64,000 nt of DNA from Synechococcus sp. (GCA_047284725.1 JBJBEO010000001.1:736001-800000); one strand, 5' to 3'. Counted from the stretch's first letter, positions 30,752 to 61,656 are shown. Notes: generated by a model from the letters alone, not told the origin. Translations and numbers: made by a program.

Positions 30752-30824
30752 GGGGCCATAGCTCAGCTGGTAGAGCACCTGCATGGCATGCAGGGGGTCA
30801 GGAGTTCGAGTCTCCTTGGCTCCA
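30752..30824 (+). tRNA. tRNA-Ala (GGC)
   Basis: GGGGCCATAGCTCAGCTGG...; anticodon arm CCTGC-ATGGCAT-GCAGG; GTTCGAG T-loop; ends TGGCTCCA. Confidence 0.97.
30778..30824 (+). repeat. attL core (47 bp, within tRNA-Ala)
   Basis: cctgcatggcatgcagggggtcaggagttcgagtctccttggctcca, identical to 57007-57053. Confidence 0.95.
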
Positions 30825-30966: not shown

Positions 30967-32235
30967 ATGCCTGCCCAGAAGTGGGAAAAGACCCTTCGTC
31001 AGCAGATCAGGGACAACCACGGCAATGGTTGGAACGTCATTGCTCAGAGCGGCAAGACCAAGCTCACTCGCCGGTATGAAGACGGCAGCAAAAGCGCCAA
31101 GGTGCTTCCAATCGAATGGAAAGCAACCAACAGCGTCGAGATCCTCAATGCCGTCACAAGGTGCCGTGAGCTTTGTGAAAGCAGGAACATCAGCCTTGCT
31201 GAGGCAGTCCGTTTGGACACAGAGACGCTTTCTGTCCCTGATGACCACAACGGCACTGCCAACCAAGGTTGGCCAGCTGTTGTTGAGGAGTACCTAGCCA
31301 CCAAGCAAGGTCGCCGCAGCACGACGCTTGCTGACCTCAGAACACGTCTGAAGCGTGTTTTGAGGTGTATGGAAAGCAGACCAAAGCCACGCGATTCAAG
31401 GGCGCTTCTTAAGCGGTTTGCGGAACTGCACTTCACCGACATGGCACCAGGTGGCCAGGGTCGAAAACGGAACCTTGGTGATGCCTGCGCCTTTTTGACT
31501 TACGCAGTCAACAAAGCTGGTGCGCCACAGCGTTGGTTGCCGCCAGAAAAGGCGTTCATCAATGAGCTGATCGGTGTTGCCGCTACATCTACAGAGGAAC
31601 GCTTAACGCCTCCCGTAAAACCTGCAGACCTTGCTGCGTTGCTTGATCAAATGGAAGCCGATGGTCGTCATGACCTTCGACTTGCTGTTGGTCTTGTCGC
31701 GCTGTTTGGTCTTCGACCAGCTGAGCTGGCCGTGTTGAAAGTCAAGGGCGACAAGCTCTATTGCGGCCACGTCAAACGCAATGCAGCAACGCTGGCGCAG
31801 AAAGCAAAGCCACCTAGACGTTGCTTGCCATTGGACATCGCTGGCCGTGAAGGCGAAGGCAAGCGTCTACTGCAGCTGTATTCATCCGGGTTGGTGAAGT
31901 TGCCTGCAGCTGTGTTGAACGAAATCAGCAAGGTCGACTCCAAAGGGACTTTTCAGGAAGTCGGCCATGCGTTTGGTCAGCTGCTGAAGCGTTATGAGCC
32001 TTGGAAAAATTTGGTTCGTGCGAATGAAGGCGTTACGCCTTATTCGTTGAGGCATTCATGGGCATGGCGCTGCCACGTTTGCTCAAATAATGCTTTGCAC
32101 GTTCGGCAAGCAGCTGCGCTTATGGGTCATACCGTCGCAGTTCATCTGAAGAATTACGGCACGTGGGTTGATGAAGCCAGTCTGGAAGCGGCTGTTGAGC
32201 GATACAACGAAGGTTTGGTCCCTGTTAATCAGTGA
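30967..32235 (+). CDS. Tyrosine recombinase/integrase
   Basis: FGLRPAEL (R), YSLRHSWA (xxRH), MGHT...Y catalytic residues; adjacent to tRNA. Confidence 0.92.
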   Translation: MPAQKWEKTLRQQIRDNHGNGWNVIAQSGKTKLTRRYEDGSKSAKVLPIEWKATNSVEILNAVTRCRELCESRNISLAEAVRLDTETLSVPDDHNGTANQGWPAVVEEYLATKQGRRSTTLADLRTRLKRVLRCMESRPKPRDSRALLKRFAELHFTDMAPGGQGRKRNLGDACAFLTYAVNKAGAPQRWLPPEKAFINELIGVAATSTEERLTPPVKPADLAALLDQMEADGRHDLRLAVGLVALFGLRPAELAVLKVKGDKLYCGHVKRNAATLAQKAKPPRRCLPLDIAGREGEGKRLLQLYSSGLVKLPAAVLNEISKVDSKGTFQEVGHAFGQLLKRYEPWKNLVRANEGVTPYSLRHSWAWRCHVCSNNALHVRQAAALMGHTVAVHLKNYGTWVDEASLEAAVERYNEGLVPVNQ

Positions 32236-39554: not shown

Positions 39555-39723
39555 TCAGCGCCGCCGCCCCCGTGGCGTTGCCGTCGTGCTCAGCCCACAC
39601 AGGATCGACAGTTCTCTGATGGCACCGACGACAGCGGCAGGCTGCCCACGCTTTGCAGCATCACCCGCCGTCTTTTCAGTATCTGAATCGACAAGCGATC
39701 AAGTCCTAGTGATCAAACGGCTG
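39555..39723 (-). pseudogene. 3'-end remnant 2 of terS-like gene (frameshifted)
   Basis: TAGDAAKRGQPAAVVGAIRELSILCGLSTTATPRGRRR-stop. Confidence 0.85.
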
Positions 39724-43948: not shown

Positions 43949-44316
43949 CAAAAAAGCATCCGTAGATGAGGCTGCGGATCACGACTGACCGTGGGGGCAG
44001 TAATCAGTAAATCCTGCAGCCCCTGGGCGCCAGATACTGGTTCACCGTTGCCTAGCTCTTCGACCAGAATTGGCTGACAGAAAGCCATTGCTGCATGGAA
44101 CCCATCACCTACCTGGTCATTGTCTGGGCAACCTATGGGGCCCACAGAACAACGGCAGCGATGGAGTCGATTCCCCAGTCATCACTGAAACAGTGTCAGT
44201 CCAATGTGGAACTAATCCAGGAGTGGCAGCCCAAAGCGAGCGCGCGTTGCATTGAAGGCGTCAGATAGGGAGGAGGAGGACCCACGCAGATCAGAGGAGC
44301 ATCAAGGCAAAAGAGA

Positions 44317-44731
44317 AGGCCGCCCTTCCCGATGGAAAGACGGCCTATCTCGCTCGTTTACGCATGGTTCAACCCATCACTGCAGAAGAGAGATGAGGGT
44401 CGAAGCTGCTGGTTAGAGGCGCCCTGGGGCCATTTGCTCTAGGTGTTGGGTCGTTTTCTCCGAGGGCACCTGAAGCGGTGCAAGTGGAGCGTCGATTGGC
44501 GTGGCGTCCCTTTACGTGCCTACCCAAGGACCAACCCAGGTCGTTTTTGAGACTGTTGGAGCAGGGGCCAGAAAGTCAGCGTGCTTCTTGCTTTTGCTCT
44601 GGTGGAGTATCGGCCGTCATTGGCGCCTCCGATTTCGGTGACCACACTCTCCACCCGCTACGCCGAACTGCCTACCCGTTGTCTTGCTCATTGCCTTCAG
44701 ATCGGAATCCACCGACACTGAGACCGGCGTG
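44317..44731 (+). ncRNA. Putative large structured ncRNA, copy A
   Basis: Homologous to 49770-50233 with compensatory base changes and a 93-nt identical 3' block. Confidence 0.65.
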
Positions 44732-44763
44732 GCTAAGGAAGAGGACACCCTGACGGGGAAACT

Positions 44764-44853
44764 TCAACGCCGCCAACCCCGTGGCGTTGCCGTCGTGCTC
44801 AACCCGCACAGAATCGTCAGCTCTGCAACAGCACCGACAACAGCGGCAGGCTG
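44764..44853 (-). pseudogene. 3'-end remnant 3 of terS-like gene
   Basis: QPAAVVGAVAELTILCGLSTTATPRGWRR-stop. Confidence 0.85.
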
Positions 44854-45065
44854 CTGCTCTGTATCCACTCAAGTAGCAAGGCAAAGCAGCAAGACGTAGC
44901 CCACTTACGAGCCGCAGAAGCTCAGCGTCAGATGGGGTTTTTTCCTGGCTTTACTTGTCAGAGCCCGACAGCGGACCCAGCACCAACGCCTGGGTGAAGA
45001 AAGGGTTGAACACCTGCGCTAGAGATGTTCCACACACCTTCGAAACAGCAGTTCGCCCGATGTGG

Positions 45066-45257
45066 ATGCGACCCCTCTTGTTGGCAATAGCACTGATCGC
45101 GACAGGTTCTGCAGCTTTGGCTCAGACCTGCAAGTCGTTCAGCAACTGCGAGGAAGCTGTCGAGTCACTCCGATCCGGCAACTCAAGGCTTGATCGCGAT
45201 AAAGACGGCGTTCCCTGTGAGTCTCTGTGCGGAAAGAACGGCGAGAACATGCGTTGA
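45066..45257 (+). CDS. Secreted Excalibur calcium-binding domain protein
   Basis: Signal peptide; CKSFSNCEEA...LDRDKDGVPCE. Confidence 0.85.
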   Translation: MRPLLLAIALIATGSAALAQTCKSFSNCEEAVESLRSGNSRLDRDKDGVPCESLCGKNGENMR

Positions 45258-45868
45258 GACGGGCTTGCTGTTTGCTGCTCTGGAGTTTCGCTGCAGTACC
45301 GGTCCATGCGGCGACTGTGGTCTCTGTCGGTGATGGGGACACCATCAGAGTTCGTGAGGGTGGCAGGGCCATCACGATTCGTTTGGCCTGCATCGACGCT
45401 CCAGAGACGTCTCAGAGTCCTTACGGCATGCGTTCTCGCTTGGCACTGAGTCGGCTGCTCCCCATCGGTTCTGAGGTGTCCTTGCGTGCACAAACAGTGG
45501 ATCGCTACGGCAGAACTGTGGCTGAGCTTCTGAACTCCCGTGGAAATATCAACCAGCGGATGGTGGGCAGTGGCCAGGCATTCGTGTATCGCAAGTACCT
45601 GGAGAAGTGCGACGCAAGGCAGTACCTCTCCCTGGAACGCCAGGCTCGAAACACGGGCGTTGGCGTGTGGTCAATCGGCCCCTCAGGCATCACCCGCCCA
45701 TGGGACCACAGGCGGTCTCGCCGGGGTGGCAAGCAGAGGACTGGTTCGTCTCGCCGATGGCGTTGTGCAGACATCGGCTCATGGCAGCAAGCACAGCGAC
45801 TTCTGATCCAAGGCCATGCATACCTCGATGGTGACGGCGATGGTGAAGCGTGCGAATCGCTCCGGTGA
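45254..45868 (+). CDS. Thermonuclease (SNase-like) with C-terminal Excalibur domain
   Basis: VGDGDT, IRLACIDAPE, DRYGRTVA, LDGDGDGEACE. Confidence 0.88.
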   Translation: MRRACCLLLWSFAAVPVHAATVVSVGDGDTIRVREGGRAITIRLACIDAPETSQSPYGMRSRLALSRLLPIGSEVSLRAQTVDRYGRTVAELLNSRGNINQRMVGSGQAFVYRKYLEKCDARQYLSLERQARNTGVGVWSIGPSGITRPWDHRRSRRGGKQRTGSSRRWRCADIGSWQQAQRLLIQGHAYLDGDGDGEACESLR

Positions 45869-46194
45869 GTTGCTCTGCCATGTAGAAGGGCGGGAGTTAC
45901 CCGCCCTGGCGCCAAACCCCGTCTTAAGGAAGCGGTTCTGTAGGCGTCTGTATTCGTTCTAAATGTCCGCTAAGTGCATTGCAACTGGTAGATCTACCTG
46001 TTTGCATCTCGTGATGATGCAATAGAAAACCGAGCTGCCTGATCAACACCCTTTGAAGCAGGGAGAAGGGCGGCTGCTGAACGAACGACAGTAGTGATAC
46101 TGAAGATCATATGAGAATAGGGAAGCCTGGTGACTTGTGCTGATGCATGGGCCAAAGGCACCGGTAACAATAAAGTTAGCCGCTAAAAAGAGAG

Positions 46195-46434
46195 ATGCCA
46201 ATGTTTCTTGATGTTCACCCGATGAAGCCTTTCACAGCAGATCAACTCAACTCTCTTCAGAATGCGCCTGCAGACGAGTTTGGTGTTACTCATCACGATA
46301 TCCTGTACAGCGAAGAAGATGATCGCATTTACTGCATCCTGAATGCTCCCAGCGCTAAGGCAGTTCACCAGCACCATCAAAAGGCCGGAATTACCTGTGA
46401 CTGGGTGCAAGAAGTAAGCTCAACTCGCCTATGA
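46195..46434 (+). CDS. DUF4242/SCO4226-like small metal-binding protein
   Basis: MPMFLDVH...YCILNAPSAKAVHQHH...CDWVQEV. Confidence 0.8.
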   Translation: MPMFLDVHPMKPFTADQLNSLQNAPADEFGVTHHDILYSEEDDRIYCILNAPSAKAVHQHHQKAGITCDWVQEVSSTRL

Positions 46435-46637
46435 CTCGGTCAGAACAACTAATAGATATATCAGCCATTTACTGTCTTATTATTTCTGTACTTTTTGCTC
46501 TGCTGATTTCTGATGCTGTCGCTTATCGGGCTAGGATGCTCAGTTAACTTCCTTTGCCCGAATTTGATCTACAACGCCCCCGTAAGACAGGGGGCTTTTT
46601 TGCGCATCTGGAGAATCTCGGTCAACCAGGACCTGAC

Positions 46638-46776
46638 CCTCAGCACGATCAATGTCCCCGCCTAGGGGTATCGATCCCTTATGGATCGGGAGTTGAGTCC
46701 TTTTGTGGGGCTCTTGGCGAGAGAACGAGAGCCCCATGGAGCACTTGCCCTCTTCCTTCCGGGGGCTGGTGCTCTC
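46638..46776 (+). ncRNA. Three-hairpin repeated motif, copy 1
   Basis: AATGTCCCC..TAGGGGTATCGA..GGGAGTTGA shared with 47060 and 53864; covarying stems. Confidence 0.55.
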
Positions 46777-46857
46777 ATGCGAGCAAACGTCCTCGTTAGG
46801 GGGTATCTGCAATGGAGATCGCTGTCCCAAGTTGGACGCAAGGCAAGGGAGGTGTAA

Positions 46858-47088
46858 ATGACCCTGATCTCTAAAGGAAAAACAGACGACAGTTGCATCG
46901 GCAGGACGTGCCTGAAATGGTCTCCAGATGGGTCTCTATCAGATTTCGACAAGGACTTACTAGTGAGGCGACTTTGCGCATCTGATCCAGAGTTTTCTAA
47001 ATCAGATGCATGCCGAATCCATCAATTTGATGATCTTTCTCAGGCTCTCAACACGGCTCCCTCAATACAGATCAATGTCCCCACTTAG
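46858..47088 (+). CDS. Small hypothetical protein
   Basis: GGAGGT SD; 76-aa ORF lying between two motif copies. Confidence 0.55.
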   Translation: MTLISKGKTDDSCIGRTCLKWSPDGSLSDFDKDLLVRRLCASDPEFSKSDACRIHQFDDLSQALNTAPSIQINVPT

Positions 47089-47197
47089 GGGTATCGATCC
47101 CTCATGAGTCGGGAGTTGAATTCACCTGTGGGGGCTTGACGGCATAGAGGGGTCCCACAGAGCACCGGCCTCTTCGCCTAAGGGGGCTGGTGCTCTC
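47060..47197 (+). ncRNA. Three-hairpin repeated motif, copy 2
   Basis: CTGTGGG/CCCACAG and AGAGCACCGGCCTCTT/AAGGGGGCTGGTGCTCT stems. Confidence 0.55.
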
Positions 47198-47275
47198 CTG
47201 CGCAGAAATCAACCAATCCCCTTCAACGCTGATCGCAGCAACAACAGATCACCCGCAGCGATCTCAACCGGTGCA

Positions 47276-47599
47276 TCAGGTGCCGTCCACGGTGAGATCC
47301 CACCCATCGTGACCTTGGCCCTGCCGATCGCGGTTGTAGTAACCCTCAATCCAGAATGCCAGATCGCTCTGCAGCTGTTTGGGATCGAGCAACTCCTTGC
47401 GGCTGTCGTCCAGGGCGAATTCGATCTTGAGAGTGGAGAAGAAGCTCTCCACCACTGCGTTATTCCAGCAGCAGCCCTTGGCTGACATGCTGCAGCTGAT
47501 CTTGTGCTTTTCCAGCAGCTCTCTGTAGTCGGTTGTTCTGTACTGGCTTCCTTGATCGGTATGGATGAGCAGTTGGTCAGGTGTGACCTGGCTGGCCAA
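47276..47599 (-). pseudogene. IS3-family transposase fragment
   Basis: IHTDQGSQY...SMSAKGCCWNNAVVESFFSTLK...YYN. Confidence 0.88.
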
Positions 47600-47716
47600 G
47601 GGCTCGGTTGAGGGCCTCGATCACAGGCTGGAGCCGCCGCCATCTCAAGCAGTGAGCGGGTTTTCAAGCGCGGCCGCTCTTCCTAAGGTTCGGGAGAGCG
47701 GCCTGTCTATTGCCTG

Positions 47717-48619
47717 GTGTCTCTGCGAGCTCGTTTCATTCCCATCCTGATCGGAGTGGCTGCCCTATGCGGCAGTTCGGCTGTCGCCCAGGTCCTGAAG
47801 ATGGACTACCAAAACAACCGCATGAGCGGTTCGTTGCGCAGCGGCGCCGTGGAGGTCAACGTGGAACAGCAGCGGCGGATCAACGAGTCCGGATCGAATG
47901 TGCTCCAGCCGGTGGCTGTCGTTCGTGTGAATGGCAACGAGGTCGGTCGGCTCGTTGGCGCCGAGAAATGGGGTGGCAGTCCAGCTGCGGTGGTTCAGAT
48001 CGCAGAAATGGATCCGGAGAACCCTTACCCCGAAGTTCTGCTCTCTTCCTTCACCGGAGGTGCGCACTGCTGCAATCAGATCCAGGTGCTCACCAGCGAT
48101 CGCAGCGGGCTGACCTGGCAAGAGGTGACACTCGGGCCTTTCGACGGGGGTGAGTCACCAGCAGAGGACCCGTTGCGGAATGGCCGCTTCCTGATCGTCG
48201 ATGTCGACAACCGGTTCCTCTATCGCTTTGCCTGCTATGCCTGCAGCACCGCACCTGCCCGCATCTGGCAGCTGCAGGGCAATGCATTCGTGGATGTGTC
48301 CCATCGGCTTGAGTTCACACCACTTCATCGCCGCAACCTGCAGCGCATGGCCGACTGGTTCCAACAGAAGAACCCTGGGTCGCCGAATGGATTTCTGGCC
48401 GGTTACGTCGCCAACAAGGCGCTGGTGGGCGAGCTGTATGACGGCTGGGATCGCATGACCCAGCGCTACGACTCCTCAGACTGGGGGTTGAAGGAGTGCA
48501 AGGGCGACCTGGATAACAACGGCAAGTGCCGCTGGGAAATCGTCTACAGCTCTTTCCCGGAAGCCTTGCGGGCCTTTCTGATCGACACTGGTTACATCAA
48601 GCCAACCGGTGAGCAGTAG
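47717..48619 (+). CDS. Secreted hypothetical protein
   Basis: Signal peptide; FTGGAHCC motif; 300 aa. Confidence 0.75.
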   Translation: MSLRARFIPILIGVAALCGSSAVAQVLKMDYQNNRMSGSLRSGAVEVNVEQQRRINESGSNVLQPVAVVRVNGNEVGRLVGAEKWGGSPAAVVQIAEMDPENPYPEVLLSSFTGGAHCCNQIQVLTSDRSGLTWQEVTLGPFDGGESPAEDPLRNGRFLIVDVDNRFLYRFACYACSTAPARIWQLQGNAFVDVSHRLEFTPLHRRNLQRMADWFQQKNPGSPNGFLAGYVANKALVGELYDGWDRMTQRYDSSDWGLKECKGDLDNNGKCRWEIVYSSFPEALRAFLIDTGYIKPTGEQ

Positions 48620-48973
48620 CCCTGCACAGCAACAGTCCTACGAGGACGAAGCCAGCCCTTTGATGCAAGCCGAGTGACAGTCGCAACCCCATTACGACCG
48701 TTACTTGCGTCAAGCCGGTGAGGGCTCACTGACCTGTTGATCCACAACCGCGCGCCGTCTGCACCATGTGAACTCGGACGTATCAGCTCCCCCACCAGGG
48801 GACTTTTTTTGGGGTTTTTCGATGAAGTGGATGCTGCTTCTGGTGCTGGTGGTGATTGGCGTCGGGACCCTGATGGGGACGACGGCGCCGCCGATGCTGT
48901 GAGCTGACCTAAGCGGGCTTATGGCAGCCATCGCCACATCGGTTACGCCGCTTTTGCCGCGATGCTGTGAAAT

Positions 48974-49186
48974 GTGCCGTTTGAAAGGCAGAGAATGACC
49001 AACAGCACTCCAAACCTCGTTGCCTGGCTGGTTGAATACAGAAAGTATTTAATCCTCGTCGCCGATGGTGCCAACGATGAGGCTGCACTTCTAAAGCAAG
49101 AAATTGAGGAGGGTCTCAATTGGGTTGAACTGACTTGGGCTGACCTTGAATTTGCAAATGATTCTGATCAGTCTCTGCGCCATTGA
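48974..49186 (+). CDS. Small acidic hypothetical protein
   Basis: 70-aa helical ORF. Confidence 0.5.
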   Translation: MPFERQRMTNSTPNLVAWLVEYRKYLILVADGANDEAALLKQEIEEGLNWVELTWADLEFANDSDQSLRH

Positions 49187-49569
49187 TCATCCCGTCCGTG
49201 TGTTGGCACGCCTGTGGCGTTGAATCTGGTGAAGTACGGGAATCCGATCGGCGGCTCAAAGCAATACGTCCGTAGACCGTTCAAAGATTTTGCTCAGTTA
49301 TGACAATCGATCTGTCAGGCGGCGCCCCCATCGGCTCGTTCATCTTTGAAGGCAAGCACGCACCTTTCCGTGCTCTCGCCTGTCCATTGCACGCCATAAC
49401 AACGGGCTCAGAGGAATCTCCTTTAGATTCAGCTCAAAGCCGCCGCGCCCGCCGCGCTTGAAGATTCTCTAGTTGACGTAACTCCTATTTCGTCAAGTGA
49501 GGGCTCACTGGCATTCGATGCACGCACGATTCTTGTGTCTACGTTGCGAGGGTCGTCCTCTTCAGGGAC

Positions 49570-49737
49570 ATGGGATTCGACGGAGTAGACAAGACAGACC
49601 GGTTCATCATTGCCGCCAAGCGACGTGCCGAAGCTGCATTGCATGAAACGTCTCCAAAGCTGACGGCACTTGAGAAAGCGATGTGGCTCAAGTTGAAGCG
49701 AGGTGAACGCCCCTGCAAAAACAGCAAGGCTTCCTAG
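49570..49737 (+). CDS. Small hypothetical protein (55 aa, below ORF-track cutoff)
   Basis: MGFDGVDKTDRFIIAAKRRAEAALHETSPKLTALEKAMWLKLKRGERPCKNSKAS; purine-rich leader. Confidence 0.5.
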   Translation: MGFDGVDKTDRFIIAAKRRAEAALHETSPKLTALEKAMWLKLKRGERPCKNSKAS

Positions 49738-49769
49738 GTAACTGCTCACCTGCACTTCAACAAAGTAGG

Positions 49770-50233
49770 AGGCCGCCCCTCCCTAGTGGAAAGACGGCCT
49801 ACCTCGCTCGTTTGTGCATAGCAATCGACCTAATCAGTGATGCTGTATCCGTGAAGCGTGGTTGCTTACCGAAGAACAGTGAACTGAAAGAAGAAGGTCG
49901 AAGCGACTTGGCTATGGCATCCCTGGGGCCATGACGTCCAAGTGTGTGGCGTTGTATCCCCGGGTCACCTTTCGCGCGGTGATGTGGGGTGTCGATTGAC
50001 GTGGCGTACAGCTAAGTGCCTGCCAAAAGACCGTGCCTCACGGGTGGGTGGAAACTGTTGGAGCAGGGGCCAGAAAGTCAGTCTGCTTCTGCAATCTGGT
50101 TGGGTGGAGTGTCGACTGTCATCAGCGCCTCCGATCTCGATGACCACACTCTCCACCCGCTACGCCGAACTGCCTACCCGTTGTCTTGCTCATTGCCTTC
50201 AGATCGGAATCCACCGACACTGAGACCGGCGTG
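49770..50233 (+). ncRNA. Putative large structured ncRNA, copy B
   Basis: Homologous to 44317-44731, with an extra ~45 nt inserted inside one stem. Confidence 0.65.
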
Positions 50234-50472
50234 CCGAGGGTCAGCTGGAACGCAGCCGTGACAACTCACGTGACGCCCTGATCACCTGGTGTCTGTCATC
50301 TGAGAATTCGATCACGGCCTCCAAGTCAGCCATTTGCTGAGCATTTCCATATCTCGCAACTCACCAGCAGCATTAGATTCTTCCGATATCTCAGCAACTA
50401 GTATTTTCACTAGCTTCTTTCGATCAGTGCTAGGCACCGTAGATTTGTCCAAAGCCGTCTCTAGCTGAATCC

Positions 50473-50667
50473 GTGGAGCTATTCTTCGCTCTTGGTATCC
50501 CTGCCATTTTATTGATCGGGAGCGCGTTTCTCTTGGCTAATGGGAATGGTCAGTTACGGACAAAGCTTCTGCGTTTTGCAACCAGTGGACCACTATCTCA
50601 GGCATGGAATTTTGGCATCATCTTCATGGTCGTTGTCTCGATCATTGTTTACGTAGCTAGACGATGA
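50473..50667 (+). CDS. Small 2-TM membrane protein
   Basis: Two hydrophobic segments. Confidence 0.5.
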   Translation: MELFFALGIPAILLIGSAFLLANGNGQLRTKLLRFATSGPLSQAWNFGIIFMVVVSIIVYVARR

Positions 50668-51910: not shown

Positions 51911-52258
51911 TCACCGCCGCCAACCCCGTGGCGTTGATGTCGTGCTCAAGCCACACAAATTCGACAGTTCCCTGACGGCGCCAACGACAGCAGCAGGTTG
52001 CCCACGTCTTGCGGCATCACCCGCTGTCTCCTGCAACGTATGAACAGCCCAAGCCACCAGGTCCTTGCGATCAAGCGGCTGAACGTCAGCACGGATTTGT
52101 TCCCATGCACGGGCTAGGAGCCTGTGACACTGCCGCTGACTCAATCCCCATTCGTCTGCCGCAAACCTGACGGCGGTGCTGTTGCTGCTGCCGCTAAGGA
52201 TCATTGCCTTGAGAGTTGCGACCCTGTCAGCGATCTGTTTGTTGGTGGATCGGGGCAT
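51911..52258 (-). CDS. Small terminase-like HTH protein
   Basis: EWGLSQRQCHRLLARAWEQI...DRKDLVA; resembles 55955-56275; terS assignment inferred from element context. Confidence 0.6.
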   Translation of the reverse strand: MPRSTNKQIADRVATLKAMILSGSSNSTAVRFAADEWGLSQRQCHRLLARAWEQIRADVQPLDRKDLVAWAVHTLQETAGDAARRGQPAAVVGAVRELSNLCGLSTTSTPRGWRR

Positions 52259-55954: not shown

Positions 55955-56275
55955 TCACTTGAGCACCTGTGCCAACTCACACTGAAGCCTGATTGTCCCA
56001 ATCATTGCGGAATGGTTTTCACGCTTGGCTGATTTCATGAGCACGTCTTCAAGTTGGAAGAGTTTGCGAGCCATGAACTCTTTTCTATCTTCATCGACAG
56101 CTTCTTTGATCGCATCCTTTGCTTTACGGATAAGGAGGTCAACGCCACCGCGTTTCAGCCCCCACTCTGTTCGTCCGTGTTCAAGCAATCCAGGGCGTTG
56201 CACACCGTTAGCGATCATGTAGACAAACTGTTGAACGCGGAGTTCAGTCTCGGCTTGAGTGGCTTTTCTTCCCAT
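55955..56275 (-). CDS. Second small terminase-like HTH protein
   Basis: EWGLKRGGVDLLIRKAKDAI...DRKEFMA; same pattern as 51911-52258. Confidence 0.6.
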   Translation of the reverse strand: MGRKATQAETELRVQQFVYMIANGVQRPGLLEHGRTEWGLKRGGVDLLIRKAKDAIKEAVDEDRKEFMARKLFQLEDVLMKSAKRENHSAMIGTIRLQCELAQVLK

Positions 56276-56545
56276 GGATTCATTCTGCCAAGGGTTTAAT
56301 GTCCGATGAGCCCATTTCATTCTTCAAGCTTTGGCCCTTAAGTAGACGGCTGATATGTAGTTAATAAGCGCATCGTGACGAGCAGTCACGCAAAGCTAAT
56401 GGCAACCACTAATGGATCCAGCAAATCCTTCAGCTTGGAACTGCTTCAGCAATGCACTGCCAACAACATGGATGGGGATCGTGTCTTCTGACTACTCAAC
56501 AGCAGGACTAGCGATTAACACTATTCTACAGAAGTTCGTTCGCAT

Positions 56546-57006: not shown

Positions 57007-57053
57007 CCTGCATGGCATGCAGGGGGTCAGGAGTTCGAGTCTCCTTGGCTCCA
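57007..57053 (+). repeat. attR (duplicated tRNA-Ala 3' 47 bp)
   Basis: Identical to 30778-30824; lacks the tRNA 5' half. Confidence 0.95.
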
Positions 57054-61589: not shown

Positions 61590-61592
61590 CGA

Positions 61593-61656
61593 CGTTCACC
61601 TCCTCGTCGGGGAGGCGCAGTTCGATTCAGGCCATGGAACGGGGACCTGAACTTGC
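61593..61656 (+). promoter_or_regulatory. Glutamine riboswitch (Downstream-peptide class)
   Basis: CGTTCACCTC...GAGGCGCAGTTCGATTCAGGCCATGGAACGGGGACCTGAACTTG upstream of a YRG-motif peptide. Confidence 0.85.

Follow-up and report, generated by a model that had tools for sequence, protein, structure and literature searches.

A 64,000-nucleotide stretch of DNA from Synechococcus sp. (GCA_047284725.1 JBJBEO010000001.1), referred to here as the window and corresponding to positions 736001-800000 of a 2.58-Mb single-contig genome, contains two diverged copies of a structured element, copy A at 44317-44731 and copy B at 49770-50233. We are highly confident that these are two paralogous genes of the published Yfr103 family of RNAs. 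This RNA family is already known and is absent from Rfam, and its function has been reported as enigmatic. Taking the evidence as a whole, the best explanation is probably that these Yfr103 genes specify a dual-function RNA, in which a short conserved reading frame at the 5' end leads into a covarying structured core. The data show the architecture of the genes, the strand, the covariation, the abundance of the RNA and conservation at the level of codons, whereas the position of the start, translation, a switch between translation and folding and any target in trans are inferred. Beyond the published account of Yfr103, the present analysis adds a strand and structure backed by covariation, a codon-conserved frame, reduced homologues in AT-rich genomes and copies in islands linked to tRNA or tmRNA genes. 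The covariation counts, the reduced homologues and the codon-selected frame should make the question of Yfr103 function easier to attack. The original prediction for these elements, made from the sequence of the window, proposed a large structured RNA family with covariation that could not be assigned to any known family. The structured family and its covariation are borne out, and the RNA is independently transcribed, but six described features fit the published Yfr103 and the claim of a new family does not stand. It is the short frame that constitutes a testable lead.

Identity of the elements and comparison with other RNAs

The portions consulted of Hou et al. (2016, PMC5069720) describe seven paralogous non-coding RNAs of 290-328 nt in one marine Synechococcus strain, which together account for 55.2% of the mdRNA-Seq reads of that strain. 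The name Yfr103 was taken from Voigt et al. (2014). The same source ranks Yfr103 first in abundance among the 'non-coding' transcripts of marine Synechococcus and reports it as the single most abundant transcript of these cells, which are among the most numerous phototrophs in the ocean; it calls the function of the RNA enigmatic (PMC5069720). Homologues are described from many marine Synechococcus and from low-light Prochlorococcus, with a strongly conserved predicted structure and an imperfect palindrome, likewise conserved, at -29 to -58, and pairs of transcription start site and other end in Table_S2 give lengths of 291, 292 and 326 nt (PMC5069720).

The elements in the window resemble Yfr103 in length class, paralogue number, abundance, hosts, structure, palindrome distance and the absence of a fixed neighbouring gene, and no difference was found among the features tested. 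The length from the inferred start of copy A to position 44347 is 291-293 nt, or approximately 331 nt with the terminator, and the genome carries seven full core matches and one partial match. Sequencing depth reaches 1331 and 1489 in two runs against 2-8 on neighbouring genes, this being a rough measure taken from assembled contigs. As regards hosts, most exact core hits lie in records titled Synechococcus, Prochlorococcus or Prochlorococcaceae, and 154 of the 201 family genomes searched contain a match. The structure is conserved in that 90.0% of cells in the alignment of predicted pairs form a standard pair, and the palindrome of copy A lies at approximately -31 to -56 as against the published -29 to -58.

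No match to Rfam 15 was found at copy A or copy B on either strand at the gathering score, at which the only matches in the window are a tRNA (30752-30824) and a Glutamine-II riboswitch (61590-61651). When E values of up to 10 were admitted over 44000-50600, four chance-level hits were obtained and nothing relevant was among them. One of these, to ctRNA_p42d at 44307-44350 (18.1 bits against a cut-off of 50, E 4.8), overlaps the terminator hairpin of copy A, and the other three lie between the two copies. The original prediction could not assign the elements to a known family, and Rfam does not assign them either. The Cyano-2 motif (RF01702), which it had named for checking and which is similar in being a structured RNA of Synechococcus-type cyanobacteria with unknown function, is absent from 44000-50600 at E values of up to 10. 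Its best score in the whole genome was 14.4 bits against a cut-off of 40, in an unrelated place. Several further candidates, namely tmRNA, RNase P, 6S, the signal recognition particle RNA and the cobalamin riboswitch, likewise received no support from Rfam. A covariance model built in the course of this work (model R1, described below) detects the family where Rfam finds nothing, and could keep annotation pipelines from flagging Yfr103 repeats as novel.

RNAs of the 6S type offer a parallel in being very abundant, highly structured and trans-acting without a coding partner gene. Yfr103 differs from these in being multi-copy, in having another fold and in giving no Rfam 6S hit, and protein binding by Yfr103 is hypothetical. 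A Yfr103-type RNA is not treated in the portions consulted of a Nucleic Acids Research 2026 survey of 202 cyanobacterial genomes (PMC12873609) or of an ISME J 2020 paper (PMC7368042).

Strand, structure and expression of the genes

The RNA is encoded on the minus strand. The minus-strand fold of copy A has a z score of -3.26 with none of 100 shuffled sequences as good, whereas the plus-strand fold has a z score of -0.48 and was equalled by 28 of 100 shuffles. Terminator-like sites accompany copies A and B on the minus strand only, and in distant members of the family (L033 and L036) a T-run follows the hairpin on that strand only. When the well-registered helices of 92 distinct sequences are read as minus-strand RNA they contain 195 G-U against 44 A-C combinations, a count from which two hand-added and badly registered helices (3 and 12) were excluded; for all 45 pairs of the model-based alignment the figures are 224 and 136. 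A plus-strand RNA would show the reverse ratio, and these counts therefore indicate the minus strand. The original prediction had held that G-U pairs favour the plus strand, and this is contradicted by the pair counts, by the fold z scores and by the terminators. Its statement that there is no credible long open reading frame was accurate, as no plus-strand frame is kept: the sole plus frame open in both copies holds single-base length differences (alignment columns 18-19), which break it. A plus-strand frame reading 'LLEQGPESQ...GGVSAVI', open in several copies, was rejected on the grounds of single-base length differences and of stops in other copies.

An alignment of 31 core domains in the minus orientation (alignment A2) gave a structure of 36 pairs in RNAalifold, 16 of them with compensatory changes. 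With two helices added by hand, this structure became model R1, which has 196 positions and 45 pairs and finds 98 matches in 97 loci. Within the window there are exactly two matches, both on the minus strand, at 44398-44591 in copy A (179 bits, E 1.9e-50) and at 49896-50093 in copy B (149.2 bits, E 7.3e-42). Over 92 distinct rows, 90.0% of cells form a standard pair, whereas shuffled controls reach 82.4 +/- 0.3% and slid controls no more than 43.5%. A change on both sides of the pair was counted in 333 cells, compared with 90.9 +/- 13.2 in shuffled controls (none of 500 was as high) and at most 76 in slid controls, and such changes on both sides are seen in 24 of the 45 pairs. Pair types alternate across subfamilies, columns 97/230 being CG in 33, UA in 33 and GC in 5 sequences and columns 105/222 being GC in 33 and AU in 28. 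These results supersede an earlier MAFFT-based covariation scan, which was weak and in which variable stems were misaligned. The closing stem of a variable hairpin 3' to the core also covaries (GACCC/GGGUU, GACCU/AGGUC and GACCUU/GAGGUC) and reaches 5 bp or more in 16 of the 29 distinct sequences compared, and the core contains invariant unpaired stretches such as CUGCUCCAACAG.

Three of the stems listed in the original prediction correspond to helices of the model: GCACC/GGTGC vs TCACC/GGTGA is helix 13 (GC 90, UA 2), TTGGGT/ACCCAA vs TGGCG/TGCCA represents helices 7-8 and CTCC/GGAG vs CCCC/GGGG is helix 12. A fourth, GTCATT/GGTGAC, was not upheld, as it links the start codon of the short frame to bases that are probably at or before the transcription start. 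A pairing of GGAGGCGCC with GGCGCCUCU, present in the minimum free energy structure of copy A, was not adopted because the partner is missing in copy B and in others.

Copies A and B are colinear homologues, as had been proposed, with a mean column identity of 82% (alignment A1). The alignment contains 93 identical columns in a row, A 44639-44731 being equal to B 50141-50233, and the same segment was recovered as a repeat (D3). The identity of these last 93 nt had been noted correctly as a matter of sequence; it had, however, been interpreted as a 3' domain of the RNA closed by ACGCCG/CGGCGT, whereas the segment lies upstream of the inferred start and is promoter and operator DNA. The transcribed parts of the two copies differ by approximately 20% while the upstream segment is identical, which is suggestive of gene conversion or of a recombination event whose breakpoint was the transcription start. 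Copy B is longer by 42 bases, seen as two gaps in copy A of 33 and 9 columns. These bases sit in the loop of the variable hairpin, which has the stem GACCU/AGGUC and a length that varies across the family; the original prediction had placed the additional bases inside this stem, as found here, and had put their number at about 45.

The unit that was originally described is thus the whole gene viewed from the opposite strand, with the terminator at 44317-44346, the RNA at 44347-44639 and the promoter and operator at 44640-44731. On the minus strand the order is palindrome, weak -10-like element, transcription start, GGAGG, a frame of 13-14 codons, a core of approximately 190 nt, the variable hairpin, a AAACGAGCGAG box and a rho-independent terminator. 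The upstream region of copy A (44640-44731) is identical to that of copy B (50142-50233). It contains the imperfect palindrome, with a GCAAT half-site pattern, at 44670-44695 in copy A and at approximately 50172-50197 in copy B. The palindrome is a probable transcription-factor site, for a repressor or an activator, and its right half-site is degenerate in both copies. Of 93 distinct upstream regions, 50 have a GCAAT-N12-16-ATTGC-like motif, which in 37 cases is placed 39-41 nt upstream of GGAG. From this spacing and the published distance between palindrome and start we infer a transcription start approximately 10 nt ahead of GGAGG, which for copy A is near 44639. The transcribed region of copy A would then occupy 44309-44639, ending past the terminator tail, and an abundant form of the RNA ends at 44347. 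The GGAGG ribosome-binding site can be read directly at 44626-44630 in copy A and at 50128-50132 in copy B, and a GGAG-type site occurs family-wide. The core of copy A is closed by GAAGC/GCUUC and its first 16 bases are also the end of the short frame. It is followed by a 3' domain, defined by alignment, at 44347-44397, comprising the variable-length hairpin and the conserved AAACGAGCGAG box; the equivalent domain of copy B, at 49801-49895, has the hairpin that is longer by 42 nt. The terminator of copy A (44309-44346) is a hairpin of 13 pairs (44346-44317) followed by TCTCTTTTGC, and that of copy B (49762-49800) is a hairpin (49800-49770) followed by CCTACTTTGT.

Evidence for expression comes from four public runs, two of them cDNA libraries from one study (X1 and X2) and two of them environmental RNA libraries from another (X4 and X6); all consist of assembled contigs and the levels are rough and imprecise. 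Contigs that match without a differing letter span 44347-44626 at a depth of 1197-1331 in X1 and 1266-1489 in X2. The peaks of 1331 and 1489 extend over 44347-44569 and 44348-44573 respectively, and contigs of the flanking genes have depths of 2-8. The summed bin depth over both elements is approximately 420,000 in X4 and approximately 140,000-160,000 in X6, whereas between the elements (44708-49474) the depth is 0-21, reaching approximately 200 at most in the bin immediately upstream of copy B. An excess over neighbours of 200- to 500-fold would be hard to explain as DNA. Both X1 and X2 carry letters that we take to be adapters at 44347 and at 44626, in the same orientation in the two runs, and if the libraries are of the common deoxyuridine triphosphate (dUTP) kind this orientation means minus-strand RNA. 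The 44626 end falls between GGAG and AUG and the 44347 end falls just before the terminator hairpin. Processing at these ends may give rise to a stable RNA of approximately 280 nt that has neither ribosome-binding site nor terminator, or the ends may be assembly breaks. In copy B, adapter-bearing or sharp contig ends were seen at 50040 and 50090.

The micro-frame and a possible dual function

Downstream of the GGAGG site on the minus strand lies a micro-frame, which in copy A (44576-44620) has 14 codons and a stop and encodes MTADTPPEQKQEAR, and which in copy B (50078-50122) encodes MTVDTPPNQIAEAD, also followed by a stop. A GGAG-type site, a start codon and a frame of the D[TS][PL]P type are found together in 89 of 90 distinct 5' regions. 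The start codon is ATG in 80 of these frames and TTG in 9, and is 9-16 nt from the first G of the GGAG-type site. Lengths of 13-14 codons account for 78 of the 89 frames, with 10 of 6-10 codons and one of 20, and the consensus is M-T-x-D-T-P-P-E/Q-x-x-x-E/G-A-x-stop. Length differences before the D-T-P-P motif are of 3 nt and keep the frame. A tree of 95 rows was made from the core with the frame columns excluded; on it, the four D-T-P-P codons underwent 49 changes, only 11 of which alter the amino acid, compared with 70 amino-acid changes among 84 codon changes in the three flanking codons. The reduced homologues of AT-rich genomes keep a frame, MIDSLPEISE and a stop, with largely different bases. 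These patterns of substitution suggest that the D-T-P-P part is selected as protein, and on the same sequence evidence we lean, by a small degree, towards translation of the micro-frame. No printed mention of a coding frame in Yfr103 was met in the texts covered by a full-text literature search that included small-protein and ribosome-profiling topics, so far as the consulted portions of those texts extend; the name Yfr103 occurs in a single one of them (PMC5069720). The ribosome-binding site and the frame of 13-14 codons at the 5' end of Yfr103 are new here.

At its end, the frame runs into the closing helix of the core, such that GAA GCN NNC UGA provides the 5' strands of both P1 (GAAGC/GCUUC) and P1b (CUG/CAG). 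The change between E and G at codon 11 (GAA/GGA) is compensated in P1, where the pair concerned is AU in 60 and GC in 28 sequences. This arrangement suggests a mechanism in which ribosomes would load at the 5' end of Yfr103 and translate the frame, with the two prolines as possible pause sites. To get as far as the stop, a ribosome has to open P1 and P1b, and there it would sit over the 5' strand of P2. As the end of the frame is formed by the P1 and P1b strands and the terminating ribosome would cover P2, translation and the folded core would be mutually exclusive. Yfr103 would then be either a translated message or a folded, stable and abundant particle acting in trans, through protein binding or through pairing by way of the invariant CUCCAACAG stretch. 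That translation and fold are functionally coupled in this way is a tentative proposal, which we consider plausible without favouring it. We are equally tentative about the fuller version, according to which Yfr103 would be translated into a peptide of 13-14 residues, with D-T-P-P(E) under purifying selection from AT-rich Prochlorococcus-like to Cyanobium-like genomes, and ribosome traffic would set the balance between message and trans-acting particle. Yfr103 can be compared with dual-function RNAs that specify a small protein and also work as RNA, such as AzuCR (PMC8915982; a review is PMC12612679), which likewise have a short frame in an abundant structured RNA with overlapping coding and structural parts. 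The frame of Yfr103 differs in being shorter, at 13-14 codons, and in its position at the extreme 5' end. By analogy, AzuCR may be alike in working mode, and membership of the same group is not implied.

The principal competing explanation, which we consider rather unlikely, is that Yfr103 is purely non-coding and works solely as an abundant RNA in a regulatory or structural role, with the GGAGG-AUG-...-UGA arrangement a by-product of constraints acting on the RNA, such as pairing of GGAG with the complementary ACUCC or the binding of a protein or of ribosomes. The RNA has been published as non-coding and of enigmatic function in the portions consulted (PMC5069720), and helix P1 visibly dictates the C-terminal half of the frame. 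Constraint on the RNA would not, however, readily account for changes that show a period of three, with 38 of the 49 changes in the D-T-P-P codons silent and those in neighbouring codons mostly amino-acid changing, nor for length differences that preserve the frame, the retention of D-S-L-P-E in AT-rich homologues with different bases or a properly spaced start codon in 89 of 90 cases. Several points nevertheless weigh against the identification as a dual-function Yfr103, and some of them lend weight to a non-coding RNA. Early stops shorten 10 of the 89 frames to 6-10 codons, among them those of four of the seven full copies in the present genome (C, D, E and F), with 10 codons each; as shortened frames are tolerated, at most the first 7-8 codons can matter. 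A molecule starting at the abundant 44626 end would lack the ribosome-binding site. The start of copy A was derived by inference and the lengths and distances counted from it have the same basis, while the contigs give neither strand nor transcript ends with certainty and the X1 and X2 runs are labelled 'RNA? (probably DNA)'. The aligned sequences are mutually related, so that cell counts overstate the number of independent events, and the hand-added helices 3 and 12 are poorly registered, with 71% and 60% of cells paired. Finally, the identification as Yfr103 rests on the match of six features to published descriptions.

The remaining explanations are considerably less probable. A role chiefly as the messenger of a micropeptide, with the structured 190-nt part serving only as a stabilising 3' untranslated region, would fit the codon-level selection on the frame and a transcript that is closed by a terminator and followed by no regularly associated gene. 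We think this improbable, given that conservation and covariation of the core go beyond the need of a stabiliser (24 of 45 pairs covary and CUGCUCCAACAG is invariant and unpaired) and that frames of only 6-10 codons are tolerated. Less probable still, and in our view very improbable, is the interpretation made originally, in which integrative elements would have as their cargo either a novel structured RNA read from the plus strand or a structured single-stranded DNA signal. The lack of an Rfam hit agrees with this, as do the position of copies A and B inside a 26-kb low-GC island with a tRNA gene, a 47-nt repeat and an integrase-like gene and that of copy C, likewise in low-GC DNA, at a distance of 7.7 kb from the tmRNA gene. 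The plus-strand fold is, however, no better than shuffles, wobble pairs become A-C on that strand and there is no plus-strand terminator; four of the seven full copies are outside low-GC DNA and 154 of 201 genomes contain matches; 50,697 phage records gave no match and three word hits in viral contigs are not hits of the model; and the family has been described in print. None of the observations calls for a structured single-stranded DNA signal. The least probable possibility, to which we attach almost no weight, is a dispersed DNA repeat without RNA function, acting as a recombination substrate or representing a decayed mobile element. It would be in keeping with the multiple copies, with the identity of copies E and F over approximately 350 nt, with the identical 93-nt segment of A and B that suggests gene conversion, with the partial copy H and with the extra terminator-end copies beside some elements. 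Such a repeat would not be expected to show compensatory covariation across genera, a very high abundance of RNA or its own promoter and terminator, and no terminal inverted repeats or transposase are associated with the elements.

Distribution and genomic context

Yfr103 genes are widespread in the family to which the genome belongs. Besides the seven full copies (A to G), this genome contains one partial copy, H, which represents the 3' end only and lies at 1466.9 kb; copies E and F are the pair that share an identical sequence. By DNA search, the matches in 154 of 201 family genomes include 105 of 131 genomes that are at least 90% complete and extend to 55 of 64 genera, the best conserved part being a stretch of approximately 90 nt of the core. 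An exact search with a core 25-mer found 47 stretches in the genome collection, 44 of them titled Synechococcus, Prochlorococcus or Prochlorococcaceae. The other three (L114, L122 and L145) are in metagenome bins labelled Salipiger or 'uncultured proteobacterium', and are probably picocyanobacterial contigs misplaced in the wrong bin. Applied to 150 genomes of the class, model R1 gave hits in 8 of 9 genomes of the same family as the window and in 1 of 141 from other families; this sole outside hit (23.8 bits), in GC-rich and coding-like DNA, is taken as false. The search of the phage records was made by blastn, and the three word hits were to an exact 17-mer in IMG/VR; these are taken as chance, none being a hit of the model and one lying inside a long open frame.

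Model R1 also revealed reduced homologues in AT-rich genomes of 1.6-1.7 Mb; in one genus it detects them in 3 of 3 such genomes, against 0 of 7 by blastn. These homologues (L150-L152, in G102, G073 and G018) occur as a single copy per genome and lack one branch of the core. They have a core of 150 nt with 32% G+C and the same palindrome, terminator, GGAGG site and frame. The Prochlorococcus hosts listed for Yfr103 in the portions consulted of the published account are low-light only (PMC5069720).

Copies A, B and C are in low-GC islands that adjoin a tRNA or tmRNA gene, whereas copies D, E, F and G are in DNA of normal G+C. The proposal that the elements are cargo of integrative elements applies, then, to the surroundings of A, B and C and does not extend to the other four full copies or to the breadth of the family. 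The island around copies A and B (30752-57053) is approximately 26 kb long with a G+C content of 0.44-0.58, compared with approximately 0.60-0.65 around it. It is bounded by the tRNA gene, identified as tRNA-Ala by aragorn, and by a 47-nt perfect repeat of the 3' end of this gene (30778-30824 and 57007-57053), and it contains an integrase-like gene at 30967-32235 (phrog_1). Its other genes encode an AAA_25 ATPase, a topoisomerase-like small protein, a HEPN RiboL-PSP-like protein, a DUF6998 protein, two SNase/Excalibur nucleases, an AbrB-like regulator and a bPH protein. The island looks like a tRNA-targeting integrative element.

A 119-nt repeat occurs three times in the window (39555-39673, 44764-44882 and 51911-52029) with 70-83% identity, and corresponds to the 3' part of a 115-codon minus-strand gene at 51911-52258 with a weak match to phrog_34910. 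A decayed piece of this gene lies upstream of copy A, a near-identical copy of it is directly upstream of copy C at 371 kb, and a second phrog_34910 homologue is present at 55955-56320. In other genomes Yfr103 copies are often paired at distances of 1.6-9 kb (G191, G066, G004, G122, G166, G032 and G045), and one genome has a tandem array of three copies with 450-nt spacing (G080:C1:2267990-2269258). The extra copies that consist of the terminator end only lie approximately 300 nt from the elements concerned (L012 and L013). Just upstream of copy G, at approximately 1.72 Mb in its own genome, are small frames resembling Nif11-type leaders (LMALDQLKAFLVRMQDDASIKQ...), which may be a prochlorosin-type precursor cluster. 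A prochlorosin- or Nif11-type leader reading of the Yfr103 elements themselves was rejected, the other copies being without such a neighbour. Outside the island, the Glutamine-II riboswitch (Downstream-peptide motif) at 61590-61651 lies on the plus strand and scores 69 bits.

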